Positions 4,907-52,029 of a DNA stretch of 58,043 bases are shown here, in pieces; positions within the stretch are counted from its first letter, which is position 1, and each line of letters begins with the position of its first letter. Position numbers and translations under genes: made by a program. Under the pieces are notes generated by a model. The model was not told the origin of the DNA, did no database searches, and saw nothing but the letters and a program-made list of their open reading frames with translations. The DNA is from Candidatus Woesearchaeota archaeon (lineage in GTDB: Archaea; Nanobdellota; Nanobdellia; Woesearchaeales; JACPBO01): positions 1 through 58,043 of the forward strand of contig JACPBO010000011.1 in the NCBI GenBank assembly GCA_016180285.1. The letters run 5' to 3'.

Positions 4907-5413
4907 TTAAACAGGCTGTAAATCATTAATCACCCATTTCCCATCTTTTTGAGACATGTGGCCTTTATCTAGACAATGCTGCCTGATATATGCGGAGATT
5001 GCCATATAGACCAAAGCACCAGTATATCCAGTTGTCATTGCAATGTCTCTTACTGTTCTGTCATTATCATAAAGAAACTTAATGAACCTGTTGTCTTCTG
5101 CAAGCTTGAATTGAAGCGTTGAGAATATTTGCTCATCAAATTGGTATTCGTCCTGTTCAGGAAATTGAATGTCTAAATAATCCCGGATATTTTCATCATC
5201 TTTTAAGAAATCATCAATTTTGCTCTGCATATGGCAAATTTTATTTCTGCCTTTTCTAGTTAAGCTGCACAAGCCACATCGTTCTTCCAAAACTTCATTT
5301 CCGACACCCTCGTTTAAAACTCCAACTATGTTGATGCTTGTCTTAAATCTAAAATGTTTTCTCATGATATCATTCCATATTTTAGGTCCTGGTGCACCTT
5401 CAGGCAGTTCCAT
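4907..5413 (-). CDS. hypothetical protein
   Basis: 168-aa ORF. GGAGGTGAT precedes the ATG on the minus strand. No family recognised. Confidence 0.45.
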   Translation of the reverse strand: MELPEGAPGPKIWNDIMRKHFRFKTSINIVGVLNEGVGNEVLEERCGLCSLTRKGRNKICHMQSKIDDFLKDDENIRDYLDIQFPEQDEYQFDEQIFSTLQFKLAEDNRFIKFLYDNDRTVRDIAMTTGYTGALVYMAISAYIRQHCLDKGHMSQKDGKWVINDLQPV

Positions 5414-5428
5414 TTAAATCACCTCCTA

Positions 5429-5638
5429 TTAAACATCCTTTGCCATCACAGTGTTGCGGCCATTGGCTCTTGCCCTTTTGCATGATTCTGTGATCAGCTG
5501 CTCGACCTTTGCGCTCAGCGCAGGGGCATAGTCAACTGATATGTTTATTATGGCTTTTTTAGCGCCTTCCTTCTGCATCTCCTTTGCGAACTTGTCAGCA
5601 ACTTCCTTTATTTTTGTTTTGACAACGATTTCAGTCAT
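5429..5638 (-). CDS. small histone-fold-like protein (DUF1931-like)
   Basis: 69 aa. The pattern VKTKIKEVADKF...ISVDYAPALSAKVEQLITESCKRARANGRNTVMAKDV resembles the DUF1931 / archaeal histone-fold family as I remember it (..ERAKANGRKTV..DL). Confidence 0.5.
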   Translation of the reverse strand: MTEIVVKTKIKEVADKFAKEMQKEGAKKAIINISVDYAPALSAKVEQLITESCKRARANGRNTVMAKDV

Positions 5639-5688
5639 TATTATTACCTTTTAATTTAACATACATCGTATGTTTAAATAGTTTCTTA

Positions 5689-5955
5689 TTATTGATGGTA
5701 AATATTATCATGATGGTCGAGCTCTTCAAATATGACTTTCTTTTCCTGCTCATTTACAGAAAATAAAAGAATGAAACTTTTGTCCATATGCACTCGCTTG
5801 AGATGCTGCATTGGCGCTTTAAGGTTTTTATAATGCTGCGGATTTTGAATTACTTCCTCGATTTTTTTATGTATTATTTCAAGCTGCTTGGGGTTTTTCT
5901 TAGAAATTTTGCTTAGTTTTTTGTCTAAGCTGTCTTTAATGTCAAAAGAGTACAT
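5689..5955 (-). CDS. relE: RelE/ParE-family type II toxin
   Basis: 88 aa. The pattern F..D...KKL.KI.KKNPKQ...I.KKIEEV..NP..YK.L...H.KRVH.DKSF.L.F resembles RelE/StbE toxins. Its start lies 1 nt downstream of the antitoxin ORF. Confidence 0.75.
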   Translation of the reverse strand: MYSFDIKDSLDKKLSKISKKNPKQLEIIHKKIEEVIQNPQHYKNLKAPMQHLKRVHMDKSFILLFSVNEQEKKVIFEELDHHDNIYHQ

Positions 5956-5956
5956 A

Positions 5957-6208
5957 TTAGCTCATGCCATATCTTTTTCTGAAATTCTCAAGAGTGCCAA
6001 TTTTTATGGTTTTCTCTTTTGCTACCCTTTTCATCCTTTCTATGAATTCGGGCCTTAGTTCAGGCTCTAAAAGTTCTCCCCCATAATCAGCTACAACCTT
6101 TTCTATAGCTTCAGATTTATCTTTAAGGTTATACCTCGCTTTTACAATATTCAGTATTTGGTTTACACTTTCCGAAATTTGGATCATTGCCTGCACCATA
6201 TACATCAC
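5957..6208 (-). CDS. antitoxin partner of RelE (DUF2683-like)
   Basis: 83 aa. MVQAMIQISESVNQILNIVKARYNLKDKSEAIEKV matches the archaeal DUF2683-type antitoxin pattern. Directly upstream of and co-directional with the toxin. Confidence 0.6.
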   Translation of the reverse strand: MMYMVQAMIQISESVNQILNIVKARYNLKDKSEAIEKVVADYGGELLEPELRPEFIERMKRVAKEKTIKIGTLENFRKRYGMS

Positions 6209-6255
6209 CTATATTTAATATATATGTTGAGTATATAAATGTTTTGCTTTTAGAA

Positions 6256-7947
6256 TCACTTGTGCGCAAACCAAAACACAAACTTGTCCTTTTCTTTTTT
6301 ATCCAGCCTGCAGAATGCAAACCTTTCAAACTGGACAATCGTGCCTTCGCCAAGATCATTTACTGATTTTTCTGCAAGCCCTTTTTTAATTGATCCGTCA
6401 TCCATAAGAATTTCTGCATTAACCAGATCTTTCCCGGCAGCCAGCCAGTGCATTATCCTCTCGCCTCTATCCTTGTATTTTTCGTATTCCAACGATTCAA
6501 AAACAAATCTATCTTTTACTTTTTTAAAATTAAGGCAGTCCATAAGCCTGTACAGCTTATTTTCCTTCAATTGCCTGAAATCATCATTCGCAATGTAAAA
6601 TTCAGTGTACGTGTTAAATTCCCTTGCGCCTCTCTCCTTGAAATCAGGATGCAGGTCAAGCTCGCAGACTTGTATCGGCGCTTTTTCTATTTTTATTTTC
6701 TTAGGGTCTTCCACAAAAAAGTACCTGTTCGCTTCTTTTTCAATCAGTTTCCTGTTTTCAGAATAAAGAATATCAACCGGAACTGTTATTTCACTCTGCG
6801 TCATGCCGAAGCTCAAAATAAAGTTTCTTATTGCTTCGGGCTTTATGCCCCTTCTTTTTAAAGACTGCAGGCTCCATGTTCTTGGGTCGTCCCATCCCCT
6901 GTATTCCCCGGACAAAACTTCCTTGCTGGACTTTGATTTGCTTATCTTCACCCCTTCCAATTTCAATAATCCAGTATGTATCAAAACAGGATGCTGCCAG
7001 CCAAAAATATCCCAGATAAACTTCTCCATTTCGCTTTCAATCATCAGCTCTTTTCCTCTTATAACATGAGTCACACCCAGAAGATGGTCATCAATGCCCC
7101 ACGACAGTTCAAGCATTGGCCAGACTTTGTATTTTTTTCCAACTTTAGGATGCTCTCTTTCAGAAATCCTGAACAAAACCCTGTCCCTGAATGCAGGATT
7201 TGGATGCTGCATTGAGGTTTTCAGCCTTAAAACTGCCTCTCCTTCTTTGTATTTTGCCAGCATGTTTTTCCATTCTTTAAGATTTTCCTGCGCAGATGCT
7301 TTTCTATGCGCGCATTCGTTGCTGTTTTCCCTGTTCTTCCTTAATTCTTCTGCCGGGCATAAGCAGACATATGCTTTGTCCTTTTTGATCAATTCCTCTG
7401 CATATTTGTAATAAATGCTTAATCTGTCTGACTTGTAGATTATGCTCGGCTCAAAATCAATGCCAAGCCATCTTAATCCTTCTGGAATAAGGTCAAATGC
7501 CTCTTTGATCAGCTGCTTTTCCTCTGAGCCGATTGTGTCGTCAATGATCATCAGTAATTTTCCTTCGTATTTTTTTACGTATTCATCATTAAGTATTGCC
7601 GGCCTTGCATTGCCAATGTGCAGCGGCCCGGACGGATAAGGCGCGAGGCGCATGACAACTTTGCCCATTTCTGCTTTTTCAAGGTCATGCAGCCCTTTTT
7701 TCACATTCTCTTTTTTCTCCAGCAATTCAGGAGCAAGGACTTCAAGCTCTTCTCTTATCTTATCCAAGCCCATTTTGCTGATCTTTTTTATAACTTCAGA
7801 AGTCTCCTTTGCTATTTCCTTGATCTTTGGCTTAAATGCAGGATGCTCTGCAAGAACTTTCCCAATAACTGCCCCCTGGCTTGCTTTTCCTTCGAATTTA
7901 AGGGCATTTTGAAGCGCGTATTTGTAGACTGATTGCTTTATATCCAT
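6256..7947 (-). CDS. gltX: glutamyl-tRNA synthetase (archaeal/eukaryotic type)
   Basis: 563 aa. HIGH-type motif PYPSGPLHIGNARPAILN and KMSKS-type motif VKISKSKS. Length and domain order are typical of archaeal GluRS. Confidence 0.93.
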   Translation of the reverse strand: MDIKQSVYKYALQNALKFEGKASQGAVIGKVLAEHPAFKPKIKEIAKETSEVIKKISKMGLDKIREELEVLAPELLEKKENVKKGLHDLEKAEMGKVVMRLAPYPSGPLHIGNARPAILNDEYVKKYEGKLLMIIDDTIGSEEKQLIKEAFDLIPEGLRWLGIDFEPSIIYKSDRLSIYYKYAEELIKKDKAYVCLCPAEELRKNRENSNECAHRKASAQENLKEWKNMLAKYKEGEAVLRLKTSMQHPNPAFRDRVLFRISEREHPKVGKKYKVWPMLELSWGIDDHLLGVTHVIRGKELMIESEMEKFIWDIFGWQHPVLIHTGLLKLEGVKISKSKSSKEVLSGEYRGWDDPRTWSLQSLKRRGIKPEAIRNFILSFGMTQSEITVPVDILYSENRKLIEKEANRYFFVEDPKKIKIEKAPIQVCELDLHPDFKERGAREFNTYTEFYIANDDFRQLKENKLYRLMDCLNFKKVKDRFVFESLEYEKYKDRGERIMHWLAAGKDLVNAEILMDDGSIKKGLAEKSVNDLGEGTIVQFERFAFCRLDKKEKDKFVFWFAHK

Positions 7948-8071: not shown

Positions 8072-9346
8072 TCAGAAATTATTAATGTAATTTTGGTAGA
8101 TCTTATTGTTAAACAAGATGTCATAGGGATTTAGAGTTTTGTTATAAGATCCCTTATAATCTTTGTTATAATGCCCAGCAGATTTAATTACATCTTCTAG
8201 TGTACTACAGCTTCCAACAAAAGTTTCAGCACTAAATGATGTGTCTCTTAATGCTTTAAAAATCTCCAAGAATCTTCCAAAATCAATTGTATTTTTTACT
8301 CTTAAACGAGAGGTTCCTGCTCCATATCCACGTTCAAATCCTGCAATAAAAGCGTTTCTAAAGTGAGGATAAATTATATATTTTGTATTTTCGCCATCAT
8401 TTTCAAAAAGCGAAGATACTACCGTCCTTAAACTTATTGGCCCTTGCATTGCGCTATTTTTTATTGTTTCGTATTCTCTTTTTTGCAATTCTATTAGCTC
8501 TGATTCTGAAAAGTCATTAGCATCGCAAGAAGCATCAAAATCGCCAAATCCCAGCTTTACCTTGCCTGTTCCATTATAAAGGATCATGTTGCCAACGTGA
8601 GCATTGCTTCTTTCATTATCGCAGCTCCATGTTTGGCCGCTTCTATCCATGAGGCTTTTTAATTGTCCTACAATAAACCCCATATCAGAATATAAGTGTG
8701 TGATATTTATAACTGCTCTTTCTTTTTCTGAATTTCTCGAATATCTTCCATCAGGAAGCTTCTTGTTAAAAAGATTTTCAATTAAAAACATAAATTCATC
8801 TAATCTTGTATCGCCTTCCACCTTGATAATGGAAGCAGAGAAGCTCTCTCCCTTCACTTTTGTAGGATAATGCCAGTATCCTTCGCAGGTCATTAGAAGA
8901 TCAATGCCCTCATTTCGCAAGACTGTATTAAATCTGTCTGACATTTGCTTTTCAAATTCAGCTGACTGTGTCGGTTGGCCCCCAAAAACTTCAAACTCTC
9001 TCCTATTGAAATTTATAACTTTGGGATTTTTAGGGTCTAAAGAAACTCCTTTCAGTTTGTATAAAGTACCGCTATCATTAACTAAAACTGACCTCCGGCC
9101 ACTCCAGATTCCCGGTATAGTGTCATTAGGATTTCCGGGGTGTTTACTAAGATGTTCGTCTATTTCTTTGTAGTCAACCGAATCCGCAATAATTAAATCA
9201 TCATCGCCTCTTTGCTCAAATGCATAAACCGAGTCAGGCATAACTACTCTGGGGATCTTTAATTTTTTCGGTATATCGCTATCTGATTCTAATTTTCCAT
9301 TAGTTACTTTCAAAAAATTTCGGTCTCTCTTGATTAAAAGCTTCAT
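8072..9346 (-). CDS. hypothetical protein, possibly protein-kinase-like fold
   Basis: 424 aa. LYKLKG (beta3-Lys-like), SNAHVGNMIL (catalytic-loop-like HxxN) and GFGDFD (DFG-like) occur in the order expected for atypical kinases or phosphotransferases. This is motif-level evidence only. BRE/TATA GAAAGATTTATAAAT (minus sense) at 9369..9383. Confidence 0.4.
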   Translation of the reverse strand: MKLLIKRDRNFLKVTNGKLESDSDIPKKLKIPRVVMPDSVYAFEQRGDDDLIIADSVDYKEIDEHLSKHPGNPNDTIPGIWSGRRSVLVNDSGTLYKLKGVSLDPKNPKVINFNRREFEVFGGQPTQSAEFEKQMSDRFNTVLRNEGIDLLMTCEGYWHYPTKVKGESFSASIIKVEGDTRLDEFMFLIENLFNKKLPDGRYSRNSEKERAVINITHLYSDMGFIVGQLKSLMDRSGQTWSCDNERSNAHVGNMILYNGTGKVKLGFGDFDASCDANDFSESELIELQKREYETIKNSAMQGPISLRTVVSSLFENDGENTKYIIYPHFRNAFIAGFERGYGAGTSRLRVKNTIDFGRFLEIFKALRDTSFSAETFVGSCSTLEDVIKSAGHYNKDYKGSYNKTLNPYDILFNNKIYQNYINNF

Positions 9347-9428
9347 AAAATGATTTAAATAAGCGCATATTTATAAATCTTTCTATTTTTACCCTTAAAA
9401 AGTAGTTACAAAAGATATGCTGTCTTTA

Positions 9429-9582
9429 AAAATGTCAGAATTTTCCATCCAGTTTTTGACTGGTGGCAGAAAGCCAACTTTTGTTGTATGTAAAAAATTC
9501 TGAGCATGCTCAAAAACCACCTGATGTGATGGAATGTAGCTAAATGCCACCCCTCTATGGTGAGTGGTTTTTGACAGAAAAT
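9429..9582. repeat. 154-nt hairpin-rich repeat, copy A (intergenic)
   Basis: Hand alignment to 22385..22538: same length, 18 mismatches, no gaps. Internal complementary arms are TCAGAATTTT/AAAATTCTGA, the palindrome TGAGCATGCTCA, AAAAACCAC/GTGGTTTTT, and terminal TGTCA/TGACA. AAAAT is present at both ends. Confidence 0.85.
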
Positions 9583-9614: not shown

Positions 9615-10511
9615 ATGGATTCTGAAGCTGCTGGGGAAAGTGAAAGACCTAGAGAAGAGAACCTTGCAGAGAGAATACTAAAAGAGCATCAGGTTCTTGA
9701 TCTCAATATTGGAAAAGGGATCAAAATAGAAGCCGGAGACCAATTCTTTGGCATAGCGCAGCCAATAATCCAGGATGGAAAGCTGGTTGAGCCAATGTGC
9801 GGCATCATCCCCAGGGGCATTTTAGAAAGCTACATGGACAAAAAAGGCATGACTTATGGCGTTTTTGAACTTTTAAAAAAAGGTAAAATCGGATTAGTGG
9901 ATTTGAAAGGTTTGCCGCCAAATATTTCTCTACATGATTTTGGCTTTGGCAGGTACAGATTTAAGATTACAGAAGTTTTAGAGGAAAAGATAGAAAAAAT
10001 AGGCCATGTATTCTGCGCCAGAGTTTTAAGCGAGGAAAAGACAGGCGTTAAGCATACGCACTATAAGAAAGAAGTTAAATTTTTAACAGAAGTCCCTGAA
10101 AAATTTAGAAAAATATGGCTTACTGCAAAAAAACCTGGAACAGATGATGTTTATTATGTTTTAAGGGGCAATGATGAAATTGAGTGGAAAGGGATTGAGA
10201 GAGGAGACAGCTTCAATGCAACATTAACGAATTACAATGGATCGGGCAAGCATGATTTTGAGATAAAACAATTCAATGAATTTGGCTATATTGGCCATGT
10301 AAAGCCAGAAGACAAAAATCATGAGTTTAAAACAAATTTTGATTACAAAATGCTGCGTACAAATCTTGTTTATAGATTTGTAACTGTTCATGTGATGCCT
10401 CCGGGAGAAAGATTGCTGCGCAAATTCTACTGCATTCCGCTGCATTTGGTAAAAGGCATTGATGCAGCTTATGCGAGATATGAGCCTGCTAAGCCTTGTT
10501 TTTTTCGATAA
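9615..10511 (+). CDS. hypothetical protein
   Basis: 298-aa ORF ending 31 nt upstream of the preferred ATG (10543) of the HerA-like ATPase, in the same direction. No family recognised and no NurA-like DGS motif seen. Confidence 0.5.
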   Translation: MDSEAAGESERPREENLAERILKEHQVLDLNIGKGIKIEAGDQFFGIAQPIIQDGKLVEPMCGIIPRGILESYMDKKGMTYGVFELLKKGKIGLVDLKGLPPNISLHDFGFGRYRFKITEVLEEKIEKIGHVFCARVLSEEKTGVKHTHYKKEVKFLTEVPEKFRKIWLTAKKPGTDDVYYVLRGNDEIEWKGIERGDSFNATLTNYNGSGKHDFEIKQFNEFGYIGHVKPEDKNHEFKTNFDYKMLRTNLVYRFVTVHVMPPGERLLRKFYCIPLHLVKGIDAAYARYEPAKPCFFR

Positions 10512-14790: not shown

Positions 14791-15864
14791 TCACTTACAG
14801 GGCTTATTATTTAAAGTTTTCTTAAAATAGTCTGCTAAAACTTTTCCGCAAACTATTGATGATGTAAAAGGATAACCGGGGAACCTACCACCATTTCTTG
14901 AGCCATCTGCCTTGCACTCCCCAATTGCGAAAAGGTCTTTGCAACCTGTGGCTTCTCCCAAATTATCTGTTTTAATGCCCCCAGCAGTGTAATGTGCCGT
15001 AGGTGTGATCTTAATTTTTCCGTCAGTGCCTGCAAAATAAACTTCAGAGCCTCTTTTCATATAAGCAGTTATTTGTCTAAGGAGTTGATCAAAAATTTCA
15101 TGATACTTGTTGTTTCTGACCAAATCACGGGTTTCTTTGTCAAAAACAAAATTGCCTTCAGAGTCAATGAATTCACCCTCTCTGGTTTCGTTTCCAATCA
15201 AGATTTTTCTTCCTTCATTATATCCAAAAGGATGAATAAAAATGCAATCAGTGTTGATTATCTCGCTGCCATTCTTTCTGACAATATCAAAAATATTGTA
15301 ACTTTTGTATCTGAAATTATTGGTATATTCAAAAGTTCCTGCATACCCTCCTGTAGCCAAAACAAGGTATCTTGCTCTTAATTTGATATCTCTGTCTTTT
15401 TTTATGAAGTATACATCAAACAAGTCATTACTCTTGGCAAAATCCATTAGGTTTGCTTCTGTTTCAAATGAAGAAATGTGTTGCTGGAGTTTTTCTAAAA
15501 TCATTCTTCCGCCCTTTTTTCTACCTGAGGGAATTACCCCAAAACTTCTATGCTCAAAATTTATCTCAAGCTCTTTAAACAAACTTAAAACAAGATCTGC
15601 TCTGGAATAAATGAATCTCATTCTTTTTTCATCTTCGCCTAATTGTGTTGTGCTTTTTTCAATTATATCATCTAGTTCTTTATTTTTAGGCACTCTGCAA
15701 TGGCCAAAGCTCATTGACGACGTATTTGATAAGAGCGTCTTTTGTTCAGTACAAACAAGATATTTAATATGCTTCTTTTCCAGTTCAAAGGCCAAAACAC
15801 TTCCGGCAATACCGCTGCCAATAATTAAGACGTCATATAAACCATGCATGCCAGCGATAATCAC
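14791..15864 (-). CDS. FAD-dependent oxidoreductase (L-aspartate oxidase / succinate dehydrogenase flavoprotein-like, short form)
   Basis: N-terminal dinucleotide fold YDVLIIGSGIAGS, HYTAGGIKTD and C-terminal LFAIGEC..DGSRNGG. The start is uncertain: GTG at 15864 or ATG at 15849. Confidence 0.75.
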   Translation of the reverse strand: MIIAGMHGLYDVLIIGSGIAGSVLAFELEKKHIKYLVCTEQKTLLSNTSSMSFGHCRVPKNKELDDIIEKSTTQLGEDEKRMRFIYSRADLVLSLFKELEINFEHRSFGVIPSGRKKGGRMILEKLQQHISSFETEANLMDFAKSNDLFDVYFIKKDRDIKLRARYLVLATGGYAGTFEYTNNFRYKSYNIFDIVRKNGSEIINTDCIFIHPFGYNEGRKILIGNETREGEFIDSEGNFVFDKETRDLVRNNKYHEIFDQLLRQITAYMKRGSEVYFAGTDGKIKITPTAHYTAGGIKTDNLGEATGCKDLFAIGECKADGSRNGGRFPGYPFTSSIVCGKVLADYFKKTLNNKPCK

Positions 15865-21636: not shown

Positions 21637-21731
21637 ATTTAATGAGAATACGCTTAAATTTAAAAATCTTTCGAGAATTTCTCATAAATAAAACCGAAAG
21701 GTTTATATAAGTGTATGTTTTTAGCATACAT

Positions 21732-22340
21732 ATGGCTGTTAATAACATACAATTTACAAGGATCGAGATCAAGATAGCAAAATACATTTTTAAGCACTAT
21801 AAAGACAGGCGCAATGCCAGGCAATTGGCCAGAATCCTAAACATTAACCATGCTCATGCGAATAAGCTGTGCAACCTTCTTGCAGAAAAGCGGCTTTTGA
21901 TTAAGGAAGAAATAGGAAACTCAGCTTATTTTTCATTTAATTATGAAAATAAATTAGCTGTTAAATTCATGGAATATGTGTTAAGTTTGGAGGAAAAAGA
22001 GTTTCCAAAATGGCTTATTGTTGTTTTGCACAGCTTGAAAAAATTCATGCCTTATCTTGAGATGGGGCTCGTTTTTGGATCCTCAATAAAGACCCGTGAT
22101 TTTAATGATATTGATGTCTTGCTTGTGTATGACGAAAAAGAGTCTAAGAAAATCAGTAAAATTAAAGAAGAAATAAGAAAGTCCCAATTAGTGGAACAGC
22201 CAATAAGATATGCGGATGTAGCTGAAAAGGACATGCTTCTGAACAAAGGCGATAAGACCTTCTACAGCATTATGTCAGACAGCTTAATATTTCATAATCC
22301 TGAAAAATATGTTGAGGTGGTTAAAAAATGCCGCAAATAG
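21732..22340 (+). CDS. wHTH-fused nucleotidyltransferase (MNT-like antitoxin of an MNT/HEPN pair)
   Basis: N-terminal wHTH-like ARQLARILNINHAHANKLCNLLAEKRLL and the Pol-beta NTase motif GLVFGSSIKTRDFNDIDVLLVYD. ATG at 21732 is preferred over the GTG at 21711. Confidence 0.75.
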   Translation: MAVNNIQFTRIEIKIAKYIFKHYKDRRNARQLARILNINHAHANKLCNLLAEKRLLIKEEIGNSAYFSFNYENKLAVKFMEYVLSLEEKEFPKWLIVVLHSLKKFMPYLEMGLVFGSSIKTRDFNDIDVLLVYDEKESKKISKIKEEIRKSQLVEQPIRYADVAEKDMLLNKGDKTFYSIMSDSLIFHNPEKYVEVVKKCRK

Positions 22341-22387
22341 ACAATCATCTGAAATGGTGCCTAAAGGATCAGCGAAGGCTGATGAAA
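22328..22387 (+). other. 5' fragment of the HEPN gene (MPQIDNHLKWCLKDQRRLMK), separated from the rest by the repeat insertion
   Basis: ATG at 22328 overlaps the NTase stop by 13 nt; the second pair shows the same kind of overlap (14 nt). It is in the same frame as 22520..22954. The frame is closed by TAG at 22406..22408 inside the repeat. Confidence 0.6.
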
Positions 22388-22538
22388 ATGTCAGAATTTT
22401 CCATCTAGTCTTTGACTGGTGGCAGAAAGCCAACCTTTTTCATATGCGGAAAATTCTGAGCATGCTCAAAAACAACCTGATGCGATGGAACGTAGCTACA
22501 TGCCACTCATCTATGATGGGTGGTTTTTGACACAAAAT
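22385..22538. repeat. 154-nt hairpin-rich repeat, copy B (inside the HEPN gene)
   Basis: See copy A. Arms here are TCAGAATTTTCC/GGAAAATTCTGA (12 bp), TGAGCATGCTCA, and CCACTCATC-TAT-GATGGGTGG (9 bp with one G-U). The core between the two flanking AAAAT pentamers is 22390..22533, 144 nt. Confidence 0.85.
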
Positions 22539-22954
22539 CAGATTTGGATTTGGCGCAAAAACATTTGAAGAAATCAGAGTATAATTATGGTGTTTTGAAG
22601 ACTCTTGAGAACTTAAAGATATATGACTGGGCCTTGAATGTCGGTTTTTATGCGATTTATCATTGCTTTTTAGGGATACTGTCAAAATACGGCTACGCAT
22701 CACAGAATCAGGCATGCACGATAACGGTGCTTCTTAAGCTGATAGAAGAAAAAAAGCTAAATCTTGACAAAGACATTGTTATGCAATTTGACACGCTTGA
22801 TGTTGAGGAAAACTTGGCTGCTTCCACTGTAAGAATGGAACGGGAAATCTCAACTTATGGTGTAGAGACAAGCATTGATGTGAAACAATTAAAGAAAATG
22901 AAAGAACTGATTTTAAAATTACAAAGGGAAACAATCAGGATTTTGGCAGAATAA
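22520..22954 (+). CDS. HEPN-domain protein (toxin-like partner of the NTase), 3' portion downstream of the insertion
   Basis: All-helical ~140 aa. It is a paralog-level match to 54996..55529: the conserved YDWALNVGFYAIYHCFLGILSKYGY corresponds to YSWLWAIVTSYYAMYYIANAVLYKLGY. Lies directly downstream of the NTase. Confidence 0.65.
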   Translation: MVFDTKSDLDLAQKHLKKSEYNYGVLKTLENLKIYDWALNVGFYAIYHCFLGILSKYGYASQNQACTITVLLKLIEEKKLNLDKDIVMQFDTLDVEENLAASTVRMEREISTYGVETSIDVKQLKKMKELILKLQRETIRILAE

Positions 22955-32226: not shown

Positions 32227-32877
32227 ATGGAGCTCACTAAAGATCAATCAGATGCAATGCAGGAGAAGATCAGCAAGATGTCTCCAGAGGAGCTTAAGGA
32301 ATTCCAGAAGCAGCAGTGCGTATTCTGCCATATAATCTCCGGCAAAGTGCAGTCAAAGAAAGTTTATGAAGATGACAAGTGCATTGCAGTGCTTGACATC
32401 AATCCTGCCAATCCAGGGCATATGCTTGTTCTCCCAAAAGAGCATTATTCCATTATGCCGCAGATTCCGGAAGATGAAGTCGGCTATTATTTCAAGGTTG
32501 CCAAGGCGTTGTCGCAGGTAAGCCTGAAGGCATTGCAGAGCCATGGCACAACGATATTTGTTGCAAACGGCATTGCAGCAGGCCAGAAAGCGCAGCATTT
32601 TATGGTCCATGTTATCCCAAGAGTTGAAAATGATAATGTTGGATTGGAAATTCCTCATAATAGAATCAGCGAGGACGATCTGAACAAAGTAAGAAAGCTA
32701 TTGGCTGAAAAACTCGGAGCAGTGGAAGCGGAAATTGTAGAAGAGCCTAAGAAAGAGCTTGAAGAAAAAAAAGAAATCAAACCTGAAAAGAAAGCTAAAA
32801 AAGAAAAAACAGATAAAAAATCAGAAGAAAAAGTGGATCTTGATGACATTGCAAAATTATTGGGCGGCGGAAAATGA
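32227..32877 (+). CDS. HIT-family protein (variant motif HxMxH) with Lys/Glu-rich C-terminal tail
   Basis: CVFCHIISGK, NPANPGHMLVLPKEH and GQKAQHFMVHVIPR. Confidence 0.8.
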   Translation: MELTKDQSDAMQEKISKMSPEELKEFQKQQCVFCHIISGKVQSKKVYEDDKCIAVLDINPANPGHMLVLPKEHYSIMPQIPEDEVGYYFKVAKALSQVSLKALQSHGTTIFVANGIAAGQKAQHFMVHVIPRVENDNVGLEIPHNRISEDDLNKVRKLLAEKLGAVEAEIVEEPKKELEEKKEIKPEKKAKKEKTDKKSEEKVDLDDIAKLLGGGK

Positions 32878-33413
32878 TGGACAACTGCCCTTTCTGCGCA
32901 ATAATCGAGGGAAAAGCCGCTTCAAAGAAGATCTATGAAGATGAAAAAATAATCGCAATCCTTGATTTGAACCCTGCAAATGTGGGCCATGTCCTTGTCA
33001 TGCCGAAAGAGCATTACCCGATAATCGAGCAGGTTCCTGATCCTCTTGTTGATGCATTGTTTAAAATTGCAAACAGGATTTCCATGACTGTGTTTGAAAC
33101 ATTAAAGGCAGAAGGGACAAATATCATTGTTACGAACGGAATTGCAGCAGGCCAGAAAGCAGCGCACTTTATGGTGCATATCATCCCAAGAGCTCAAAAT
33201 GACAATATTAATTTCAACTGGAAGCCAAAGCAATTAAGCGAAGAAGAGATGTCAACAGTCGAGCTTAAGCTCAAGGAGCAGGCGAAAAAGATCGGAGAGT
33301 TTGAAAGGGAAAAGCCAAAGCCGATTGTGATCGAAGACAAGACTGAGAAGATCCCCGAGAAGATCGGGAAAGAGGAGAATTACCTGATAAAGCAGCTGGA
33401 GAGAATACCTTAG
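32874..33413 (+). CDS. HIT-family protein paralog (variant motif HxMxH)
   Basis: CPFCAIIEGK, NPANVGHVLVMPKEH and GQKAAHFMVHIIPR. Overlaps the upstream paralog by 4 nt (ATGA). Confidence 0.85.
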   Translation: MMDNCPFCAIIEGKAASKKIYEDEKIIAILDLNPANVGHVLVMPKEHYPIIEQVPDPLVDALFKIANRISMTVFETLKAEGTNIIVTNGIAAGQKAAHFMVHIIPRAQNDNINFNWKPKQLSEEEMSTVELKLKEQAKKIGEFEREKPKPIVIEDKTEKIPEKIGKEENYLIKQLERIP

Positions 33414-51777: not shown

Positions 51778-51809
51778 TATGAACGGGCCGGACGAGATTC
51801 GAACTCGCG
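51778..51809 (-). repeat. orphan duplicate of the tRNA-Lys 3' end (T arm plus 3' acceptor strand plus 6 trailing nt)
   Basis: The 32-nt string TATGAACGGGCCGGACGAGATTCGAACTCGCG is identical at 51778..51809 and 51894..51925. No matching 5' acceptor strand (GGGCCGG, minus sense) is present for the first copy. Confidence 0.8.
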
Positions 51810-51899
51810 GAGATTTTTAGTAAAAATCTCGTAAAAACACATGGAGCATAAAGCTCCATGCCGCATTGCGGCACTGATTTTTCATCTGCATATTATGAA

Positions 51900-52029
51900 C
51901 GGGCCGGACGAGATTCGAACTCGCGACCACCGCATTTCTGCGTTGCTTAAAAGTGCGGTGCTCTAAATGCCCATGAGTGGCTTCCAATAAGGATGCCCAA
52001 CTCGCATTTCCAGGCTGAGCTACCGGCCC
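51900..52029 (-). tRNA. tRNA-Lys (anticodon UUU) with two introns (D-loop, 44 nt; anticodon loop, 12 nt)
   Basis: Minus sense: GGGCCGG-UA-GCUC-AGCCUGG[44-nt intron, 51966..52009]UA-GAGC-A-CCGCA-CUUUUA[12-nt intron, 51936..51947]A-UGCGG-UGGUC-GCGAG-UUCGAAU-CUCGU-CCGGCCC-G. The mature length is 74 nt with a canonical cloverleaf. Confidence 0.72.

Follow-up and report, generated by a model that had tools for sequence, protein, structure and literature searches.

Two segments of 154 nucleotides (nt) in a stretch of 58,043 nt of Candidatus Woesearchaeota DNA (contig JACPBO010000011.1, here called the window), lying at 9429-9582 (copy A) and 22385-22538 (copy B), are best explained as copies of a mobile DNA repeat, with a probability of about 90%, and not as an RNA gene, a regulatory motif or a chance duplication. 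The family to which they belong is dispersed over many genomes of DPANN archaea of the Woesearchaeota/Nanoarchaeota type, has sharp ends, inserts without duplicating its target and shows flank conservation on the 5' side only; its stems, of DNA type, are kept by compensatory change, and copies inside genes survive in frame. As to how it moves, the balance tips somewhat towards single-strand movement of the IS200/IS605 or repetitive extragenic palindrome (REP) kind, in which a Y1 HUH transposase would carry a non-autonomous element resembling palindrome-associated transposable elements (PATEs) and the REP doublets named REPINs; the enzyme class, the single-stranded intermediate and the choice of bound hairpins are what we infer from these traits.

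The two segments align without gaps and with exactly 18 mismatches (88.3% identity), as an earlier first-pass annotation of the window had read by hand, while the flanking 40 nt are identical at just 11/40 positions on one side and 6/40 on the other. Diagnostic 20- and 22-mers occur exactly twice each in the window and never in 100 shuffles; 10-mer end matches at 15137 and 39411 were set aside as chance, the surrounding sequence being unrelated. The closest relative of each copy is the other one, full-length copies elsewhere being 73-78% identical. Since the ATG-TCA-GAA frame holds three to four stop codons in both, the window copies are non-coding and, with a large family in other genomes, the proposal of a multi-copy nucleic-acid element rather than a gene stands. 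The family-wide unit, ATGTCAGAA...TTTTTGAC(A), occupies 9432-9576 and 22388-22532 and measures 145 nt, which redefines the 144-nt core formerly delimited by AAAAT. This pentamer does precede GTCAG and recur one base past TGACA in both window copies, as had been noted, but the exact arrangement is found in no other copy; the AAAAT border is neither a family feature nor a family-wide target-site duplication (204 copies tested). The features of the two copies, all on the plus strand, are the following.

9432-9576, plus strand: copy A, family-conserved unit ATGTCAGAA...GTTTTTGACA, 145 nt, from the alignment of 54 full-length copies and the parsing of 109 and 107 copies.
22388-22532, plus strand: copy B, family-conserved unit, 145 nt, from the same parsing.
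9435-9503 (copy B 22391-22459), plus strand: hairpin 1, which folds with the base stem TCAGAATTTT (9435-9444) / AAAATTCTGA (9494-9503) and encloses two branch hairpins.
9445-9466 (copy B 22401-22422), plus strand: left subterminal branch hairpin CCATCCAGT-TTTT-GACTGGTGG, its loop T-rich on the plus strand, from folding and compensatory pairs.
9498-9517 (copy B 22454-22473), plus strand: central 20-mer TTCTGAGCATGCTCAAAAAC, identical in both copies, joining both hairpins and containing the 12-nt palindrome TGAGCATGCTCA (9501-9512).
9510-9574 (copy B 22466-22530), plus strand: hairpin 2, whose base stem, TCAAAAACCAC (9510-9520) / GTGGTTTTTGA (9564-9574) in the folds, surrounds the right branch hairpin together with a variable insert.
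9547-9567 (copy B 22503-22523), plus strand: right subterminal branch hairpin CCACCCCTC-TAT-GGTGAGTGG, from folding, 8 nt before the right end TTTTTGAC.
9427-9431, plus strand: TAAAA, the five bases directly 5' of copy A, at the place of the target-like motif TT[G/A/T]A[A/T], from flank logos of two independent sets.
22383-22387, plus strand: TGAAA, the five bases directly 5' of copy B, from the same logos.
9577-9582, plus strand: GAAAAT directly 3' of copy A, in which AAAAT repeats the AAAAT preceding GTCAG at the left.
22533-22538, plus strand: CAAAAT directly 3' of copy B, as read from the sequence.

The ends of the element are sharp and the sequence beyond them is unrelated, with ...(W)A^TGTCAGAA... 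on the left and ...GTTTTTGACA^ on the right in 54 full-length copies with flanks (^ marks the border). Between them a conserved plan is followed, ATGTCAGAA..[hairpin 1]..TTCTGAGCATGCTCAAAAAC..[hairpin 2]..GTTTTTGAC(A), with ATGTCAGAA..TTCTGAGCAT as left-end motif, ATGCTCAAAAAC..GTTTTTGAC as right-end motif, and a common core ATG-TCAGAAAT...ATTTCTGA-GCATGC-TCAAAAAC...GTTTTTGA-CA whose two halves are the hairpins. Copies measure 51-261 nt and vary in the distal parts of the hairpins, from a triloop to branched inserts of at least 60 nt; the minimal ones, of 52-57 nt, are exemplified by ATGTCAGAAATC-GGA-GATTTCTGAGCATGCTCAAAAACC-TTCG-GGTTTTTGACA (L009). The window copies belong to the 144/145-nt class, in which each half carries a GC-richer branch hairpin of 9-10 bp with a T-rich triloop: CCAnCCAGTC-TNT-GACTGGTGG stands 13 nt from the left border and CCACCCATC-TNT-GATGGGTGG 8 nt from the right one, the latter being, as claimed, a perfect 9-bp stem in copy B. 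In the core, half 1 is similar to half 2 once the latter is reverse-complemented, which makes the core an inverted duplication; nonetheless, the TNT loop of the right branch lies on the plus strand in the same orientation as that of the left, so that both read alike. Inversion is seen at the termini too (TGTCA...TGACA), where the left end resembles the reverse-complemented right end over about 30 bp (TGTCAGAAttTTCCAtCCAgTC.. and TGTCAAAAACCAcCCAtCA..).

The complementary arms reported in the first-pass annotation form two long hairpins on each strand of each window copy, with folding z-scores of -3.3 to -4.7 against dinucleotide shuffles, and the 12-nt palindrome reported with them is indeed identical in both copies. 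Across 34 copies of the window size class, 92.9% of the cells are paired, versus 85.0 +/- 0.5% in shuffles and 35-48% with slid partners; both sides have changed in 110 cells (38 in shuffles), and the covariation check suggested earlier reveals compensatory change in 16/41 pairs. By helix, helix 1 (hairpin 1) is 97.4% paired and has changed on both sides in 6/15 pairs, helix 2 (left branch hairpin) is compensatory in 5/6 pairs, helices 4-5 (hairpin 2) are 100% paired and invariant, and helix 6 (right branch hairpin) is 89.6% paired with three compensatory pairs. The structure of the element is under selection. Moreover, 2358/2405 positions of the base stems (98%) are Watson-Crick, with G.T at 13 and A.C at 20 and thus no excess of G.T, and folding is as good on one strand as on the other (mean difference 0.2 kcal/mol, 56 versus 43 copies, p=0.89; G.U 4.9% versus 5.0%). 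Copies in tandem intergenic regions show no orientation bias relative to the genes (22 versus 17). This evidence points to a DNA element and not to an RNA gene.

Insertion can be followed at two sites where related genomes are empty, the comparison of filled and empty sites having been among the checks proposed. The GatA gene of L070 encodes an insert of 18 aa, MSEIQRISEHAQKPLVFD, which neither the solved A. aeolicus GatA nor any of ten close orthologs contains; in the DNA, the two closest orthologs (86-88% nucleotide identity) read ...CCTGTTGAT^AGATATAC... where L070 reads ...CCTGTTGAT^ATGTCAGAA...GGTTTTTGAC^AAATATAC.... The junctions, GTTGAT^ATGTCAG..TTTTTGAC^AAATAT when filled and GTTGAT^AGATAT when empty, show that exactly 54 nt were added, with at most one ambiguous A. 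Similarly, GatE of L091 reads CATGAG^ATGTCAG...TTTTTGAC^AAGTTT, the element ending in TTGAC, and its orthologs CATGAG^AAATTC, again a 54-nt insertion with an ambiguity of at most 1 nt. Both pairs concern short copies, the 145-nt form of the window not being among them. In agreement with these junctions, duplication of the flanks was not significant at any offset in 204 distinct copies (shifts of 0-5 nt), nor did flank-pair tests on about 210 copies give a duplication signal: the element is inserted without target-site duplication.

Flank conservation is confined to one side. The five bases directly before ATGTCAG follow the pattern T-T-[A/G/T]-A-[A/T] in two independent sets, position -3 of the flank being A in 99/106 and 100/105 copies, and no conservation is visible in the 3' flank; the most frequent 5-mers are TTGAA, TTAAT, TTAAA, TAAAA, TTTAA, TTGAC, TTTAT and TTGAT, and at the empty GatA and GatE sites the bases of the motif belong to the host. 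TTGAC is also the element's own, target-like right end, and it precedes six copies which represent head-to-tail insertions (e.g. L109). In addition, the host base at the left border covaries with the internal base three positions past GTCAGA(A) (A/T 36, T/A 25, few exceptions), a complementarity reached by 0/2000 flank permutations. Such covariation would fit a transposon-directed choice of target of the IS608 kind (internal guide AAAG, target TTAC; PMC5027513).

Most copies are intergenic, and 6 of about 210 lie inside genes, independently of one another: in GatA, GatE, a DUF357 protein, a DUF6541 membrane protein, an NFACT-family protein and a GT4/GT1 glycosyltransferase. Their lengths (54, 54, 90, 111, 114 and 57 nt) are all multiples of three and mostly those of short forms, and 6/6 lie on the strand of the gene, stop-free and in the same frame, MSE...VFD, a combination shared by 34/200 of the other copies (Fisher p=3.9e-5). 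Judging from this reading frame, the in-gene insertions bear the signature of survival as translated, harmless peptide loops and not as introns. As a separate observation, the GatE reading frame carrying the insert at L091:4768-6300 stops about 50 codons before its 96%-identical homolog P0241 (493 aa), which suggests a frameshift or an assembly error near the 3' end of that gene in the metagenome-assembled genome (MAG).

The count of copies in other genomes, also among the proposed checks, shows a large family. Copies were collected by exact match to one 20-mer from the centre of the element, TTCTGAGCATGCTCAAAAAC, so that they over-represent one branch of a broader family and the invariance of the 20-mer among collected copies holds by construction, this having been the search key. 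At least 120 matching stretches were found in a collection of one genome per species and at least 120 further ones in JGI metagenomes, with parsed copies in at least 49 MAGs; nearly all genome matches are MAGs labelled Woesearchaeota, Nanoarchaeota/Nanoarchaeia or Pacearchaeota, or third-party annotation bins named 'uncultured Methanosarcinales' (labels unverified). Four matches (Flavobacterium, Arthrospiribacter, the Rickettsiales bin L107, in which the 20-mer falls inside a gene, and a Methanomassiliicoccaceae bin) were rejected as chance, the 20-mer standing alone in unrelated sequence. The 20-mer had 0 matches in viral contigs, copy A had none in plasmids and phages, and a 21-mer of the window subfamily, GACTGGTGGCAGAAAGCCAAC, had 0 in metagenomes.

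Within the fetched 8-kb tiles alone, single genomes hold up to 11, 10, 9 and 8 copies. Near-identical bursts occur (nine 163-nt copies in CAYNHV, eight of about 120 nt in DATDSP), JAGVXP carries many size classes side by side, from 54 to 254 nt, and nested and head-to-tail copies are seen in L007, L074 and L109. The genes adjoining copies are unrelated housekeeping genes, and clustering of 1709 open reading frames (ORFs) from 120 loci gave no recurrent neighbour family or adjacent transposase. Diverged relatives were also encountered, with GCACAC at the centre and the right end TTTTTGATGA (a sister family), or with other hairpin modules (L023, L024, L053, L074, L112); arrays or nested sets of related modules lie at L023:2877-3010, L112:5400-5510, L024:1139-1200, L053:186-300 and L074:888-1112, among them three hairpins linked by alternating GCATGC and CATG, and mini copies sitting in the centre or an arm of larger ones. 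To judge by these arrays and by the GCACAC sister family, the superfamily may be wider than the 20-mer sample. Other short GC-rich hairpin repeats of Nanoarchaeal contigs, e.g. CCGCAGGC-TTTA-GCCTGCGG and TGTCGGACTGAAGTCCGA (L050:4125, L061:3336, L085:3617 and the flanks of L037/L081), are probably further REP- or PATE-like families.

Movement of the IS200/IS605 type, one of the candidates originally listed, is now the favoured one, given the absence of target-site duplication, the 5'-only flank conservation, the DNA-type hairpins and the Y1 transposases of the same lineages. A small Y1 HUH transposase, acting in trans, would attach to one DNA strand at the subterminal hairpins, for which the left branch hairpin is a candidate. 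It would cleave behind the host TT[G/A/T]A[A/T] on the left and behind the TTGAC of the element on the right, and would release the element as a single-stranded circle ('peel-and-paste') to be re-inserted 3' of another TTRAW-like site without target-site duplication. The target of ISDra2 is TTGAT. With IS200/IS605 PATEs the family shares the lack of coding capacity, subterminal hairpins at both ends, the lack of duplication, insertion directly 3' of a short motif (TTAC in IS608; PMC5027513), a target-like right end, head-to-tail copies and the occurrence of Y1 HUH transposases in its lineages. Strand-specific recognition of hairpins would be expected to leave a top-strand signature, and a mild one is seen in the distal hairpins, where T-rich loops on the plus strand prevail in both halves (80 versus 37, p about 1e-4) and G.T exceeds A.C (53 versus 24, p=0.001, the copies counted not being phylogenetically independent), and in hairpins of IS200 type (an 8-bp GC-rich stem with a TTYA loop), which are enriched about 60-fold inside elements and carry TTYA on the plus strand in 13/14 cases.

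Y1 transposases with a compatible target motif exist in these lineages, and their partnership with the element would complete the scheme. The search covered the six-frame ORFs of the fetched loci, with an IS200 TnpA sequence as only probe, and found a Y1_Tnp gene (PF01797, E=1.7e-23) at L087:6920-7330, in the CAYNHV MAG that carries the nine-copy burst, and two further Y1 transposases in metagenome loci. The L087 enzyme has more than 400 close homologs, several of them annotated as Nanoarchaeota IS200/IS605 transposases and mostly on very short contigs, of about 1 kb or less, which break at the ends of the insertion sequence (IS), as expected of repeats. The L087-type IS, by eye in 3-4 copies, seemingly follows TTAAT/TTATT and ends near TT[A/G]AT; its left (...GGGGTTTAATTCCCCGACCTTTAGGTCG...) and right (...CCCCGACCTT[T/C]AGGTCGGGG..GGTCAT) ends are conserved and unlike those of the element, and some subfamilies of the element have hairpin tips much like the IS200 hairpin, e.g. 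CTCCGCCC-TTTA-GGGCGGGG. This IS200-type family (L087:6700-7400 and L131-L135) has hairpins GGGGTTTAATTCCCC and GACCTTTAGGTC with a structured leader at its left end and CCCCGACCTTYAGGTCGGGG..GGTCAT at its right end, and in L087 it adjoins an ISL3-family transposase at 5105-6319.

Several points weigh against this scheme. Within about 1.6 Mb around copies, no transposase gene with the element's own ends was found and the IS200 end hairpins examined differ (CCCCGACCTTTAGGTCGGGG); no copy of the element adjoins the IS200 copies in the flanks of five Y1 loci, Y1 transposase is absent from the window's own ORFs, and a search for left- and right-end motifs around a gene, as in an autonomous element, returned diverged, nested and partial copies and chance matches alone. 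As a formal IS200/IS605 derivative, therefore, the family falls short, within the sequence searched, on the matching ends of a transposase-bearing parent. Unlike PATEs, it is made of two halves in inverted duplication joined by a conserved palindrome, a core more similar to REPINs or terminal inverted repeats than to the same-orientation ends of IS608, and its tips are exchangeable modules, from triloops to 60-nt branched inserts. The corresponding distances from border to hairpin in IS608 are 19 and 10 nt; the borders of the minimal 52-57-nt copies lie 1-3 nt from the hairpin feet, and this shorter spacing suggests that recognition may work differently. Furthermore, strand asymmetry is weak overall, base stems and total folding being strand-symmetric, the border covariation could mean just a one-base-earlier start in some subfamilies, and the copies, all drawn with one exact 20-mer, are biased to one branch of the family.

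There is some room for a different origin, in which the near-invariant double-hairpin core would not be the substrate of a resident IS200 enzyme but of another DPANN enzyme, able to place hairpin modules at targets that it does not duplicate, and the family would represent a separate archaeal mobile class. We consider this doubtful, though it deserves mention; if it were true, the exchangeable tips and the in-frame peptide MSE..ISEHAQKP..VFD would play a part in how the proteins and genomes of ultra-small archaea evolve.

Also unlikely is a repeat maintained by the host, as bacterial REP sequences may be, in the capacity of protein-binding site, terminator, insulator or mRNA stabiliser, and spread by a single domesticated Y1 enzyme similar to the REP-associated tyrosine transposases (RAYTs), an explanation which overlaps with IS200/IS605-like movement and differs in the beneficiary. 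Strong conservation of the core holds over MAGs with fetched loci of about 35 to 49% GC, but part of it is due to the search key; copies favour the promoter side of genes (30 divergent versus 9 convergent regions), which the A/T-rich target motif can explain. The inverted half-elements resemble REP doublets and REPINs, and the Y1 motif YIRNQAEHH resembles YIKNQKEHH of the low-copy subclass 1.2 (PMC6006769). In common with the REP, bacterial interspersed mosaic element and REPIN sequences associated with RAYTs, the family consists of short palindromes in inverted doublets, of high copy number and mostly intergenic, and the spread of those repeats is likewise ascribed to a Y1 HUH enzyme in trans; they also make occasional in-frame gene insertions and have 'double-foot' forms (PMC6006769). 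The element differs from them in having an archaeal host, a clear target preference and sharp borders, and no GT[AG]G at its feet (ATG^TCAGAA, GC^TCAAAAAC); no REPtron-like Y1 gene flanked by the element was seen at the five Y1 loci examined, and identical bursts, nested copies and insertions in genes look selfish.

The classical miniature inverted-repeat transposable element (MITE), a deletion derivative of an IS with DDE transposase, bounded by terminal inverted repeats and moved by double-stranded cut-and-paste, had been proposed as well and is distinctly unlikely. Strictly defined, a MITE carries the terminal inverted repeats of its parent DDE IS, together with a target-site duplication of fixed length. 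The inverted termini with about 30 bp of end similarity, the presence of DDE transposases in these genomes (such as the ISL3 gene at L087:5105-6319) and the high MITE density that an automated survey gives for a Woesearchaeal genome (PMC11602168) speak in its favour, and the family is, like the Correia and Sulfolobus SM-type MITEs, small, non-coding, multi-copy and foldable, with subfamilies in bursts. The proposal is contradicted by the two filled/empty pairs, with no duplication beyond a 1-nt ambiguity, and by the flanks of about 210 copies, which give no signal of one; neither was a parent detected. Moreover, symmetric cut-and-paste does not predict conservation of the 5' flank alone, and the subterminal hairpin loops have the same orientation instead of being inverted.

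Structured noncoding RNA (ncRNA) genes or cis-regulatory RNAs, for instance a guide-RNA-like scaffold such as the omega RNA of TnpB, another of the early candidates, are improbable. Stable folding, the many compensatory pairs, some tips of UUCG type or T(U)-rich on one strand and the prevalence of G.U over A.C in the distal hairpins would agree with an RNA, and guide-RNA scaffolds are known to be encoded at the right ends of IS200/IS605 elements (PMC8612924). Against it stand the equal folding of both strands, the base stems that are about 98% Watson-Crick, the lack of orientation bias, the in-frame copies in coding sequence and a five-fold range of sizes, while no conserved promoter or terminator was seen, nor any TnpB-like gene near copies. 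The Rfam check gave, as anticipated, no known family: in the window two tRNAs alone reach the gathering score, and around copy A the best matches of Rfam 15 at E<=10 are noise of 11-18 bits (E>=1), none of them relevant, H/ACA, C/D and IS605-associated RNAs included.

Splicing of the in-gene copies as tiny archaeal introns (the small mobile intron of the first-pass annotation), or their skipping by the ribosome through translational bypass, is very remote, for although essential genes (GatA, GatE) carry copies without being destroyed and the ends of the element, read from the sequence, can pair (UGUCAGAAAU/GUUUUUGACA), all six in-gene copies have lengths divisible by three and leave the host frame free of stops, a filter expected only if the insert is translated and not, as in bulge-helix-bulge or other archaeal introns, removed, and no evident bulge-helix-bulge motif stands at the borders. 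In silico deletion of copies, tried with 25 border variants, gave apparent ORF fusions, which either are explained by in-frame read-through or are intergenic coincidences (e.g. L115 and L104).

Returning to IS200/IS605-like movement, its closest parallel inside genes is found in the Rickettsia palindromic elements (RPEs), small selfish repeats of reduced genomes that occur both between genes and in frame within unrelated functional protein genes, to which they add a short peptide (PMC10969869). The likeness is functional only, drawn from behaviour; RPEs are bacterial, measure about 100-150 bp and seem to have no sequence similarity to the family. By analogy, then, the element would work like a PATE or REPIN and behave in genes like an RPE. 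Literature searches on DPANN archaea and Woesearchaeota brought up no description of the family; the one related item was a general MITE census with a Woesearchaeal genome (PMC11602168); as far as that literature shows, the family is previously uncharacterised, and it is new as a family and not as a principle.

The genomes of DPANN archaea are among the smallest and most streamlined of cellular life and, to our knowledge, little is known of their mobile DNA. A family present in at least 49 species-level MAGs and many metagenomes, with many copies per genome and tolerated in essential translation genes, is a practical marker of assembly breaks, a source of gene-calling artefacts and of short peptide insertions in conserved proteins, and a natural system for the study of single-strand, hairpin-guided transposition in archaea. 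If the enzyme and the target rule (TTRAW read by an internal guide) are as proposed, few defined transposable units would be smaller than the minimal copies of 52-57 nt.

Regarding the sites of the window copies, copy A sits in the 268 nt that separate the divergent ORFs 8072-9346(-) and 9615-10511(+), the adjoining 424-aa protein having no Pfam match. Copy B begins 45 nt past the stop codon of the ORF 21711-22340(+), with a weak match to Pol-beta nucleotidyltransferases, and is followed by the ORF 22520/22588-22954(+), with a weak match to HEPN; as the listed GTG start of the latter (22520) falls within the element, its real start is probably the ATG at 22588. The two ORFs (21711-22954; E=0.003 and E=0.005), parted by copy B, look by these matches like an MNT-HEPN toxin-antitoxin pair. 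Assemblies of the same population (SRR4343430, SRR4343428, SRR12113xxx), found through identical proteins, have the window sites filled or contig breaks in the element, and no empty site for either copy was found among them. Short-read contigs with the window genes in other assemblies of this population (L122, L123, L125-L128) start or end in or beside the element; the repeat therefore breaks assemblies of the window's organism.

Finally, some further features of the window were observed. At 51778-51972 (-) a weak tRNA-like match (51900-51972, 20 bits, below the Rfam cut-off and not called by ARAGORN) has as its last part the T-arm and 3' end, a sequence of 32 nt, CGCGAGTTCGAATCTCGTCCGGCCCGTTCATA, of which an exact second copy follows 116 nt downstream (51778-51809, 51894-51925), and the 84 nt between the repeats contain small hairpins, e.g. 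GGAGC-TTTA-TGCTCC; the arrangement resembles either a small insertion at the 3' end of a tRNA, its attachment site having been duplicated, or a disrupted tRNA. Downstream of the copy B neighbourhood, from about 26400 (L124:3410-3809), lies a 1209-aa elongation factor 2-like GTPase whose precomputed Pfam matches include Intein_splicing and a LAGLIDADG homing endonuclease. Lastly, a 96-nt direct repeat of 80% identity in coding sequence (32545-32640 / 33114-33209, 569 nt apart) may represent two similar domains or tandem paralogs.

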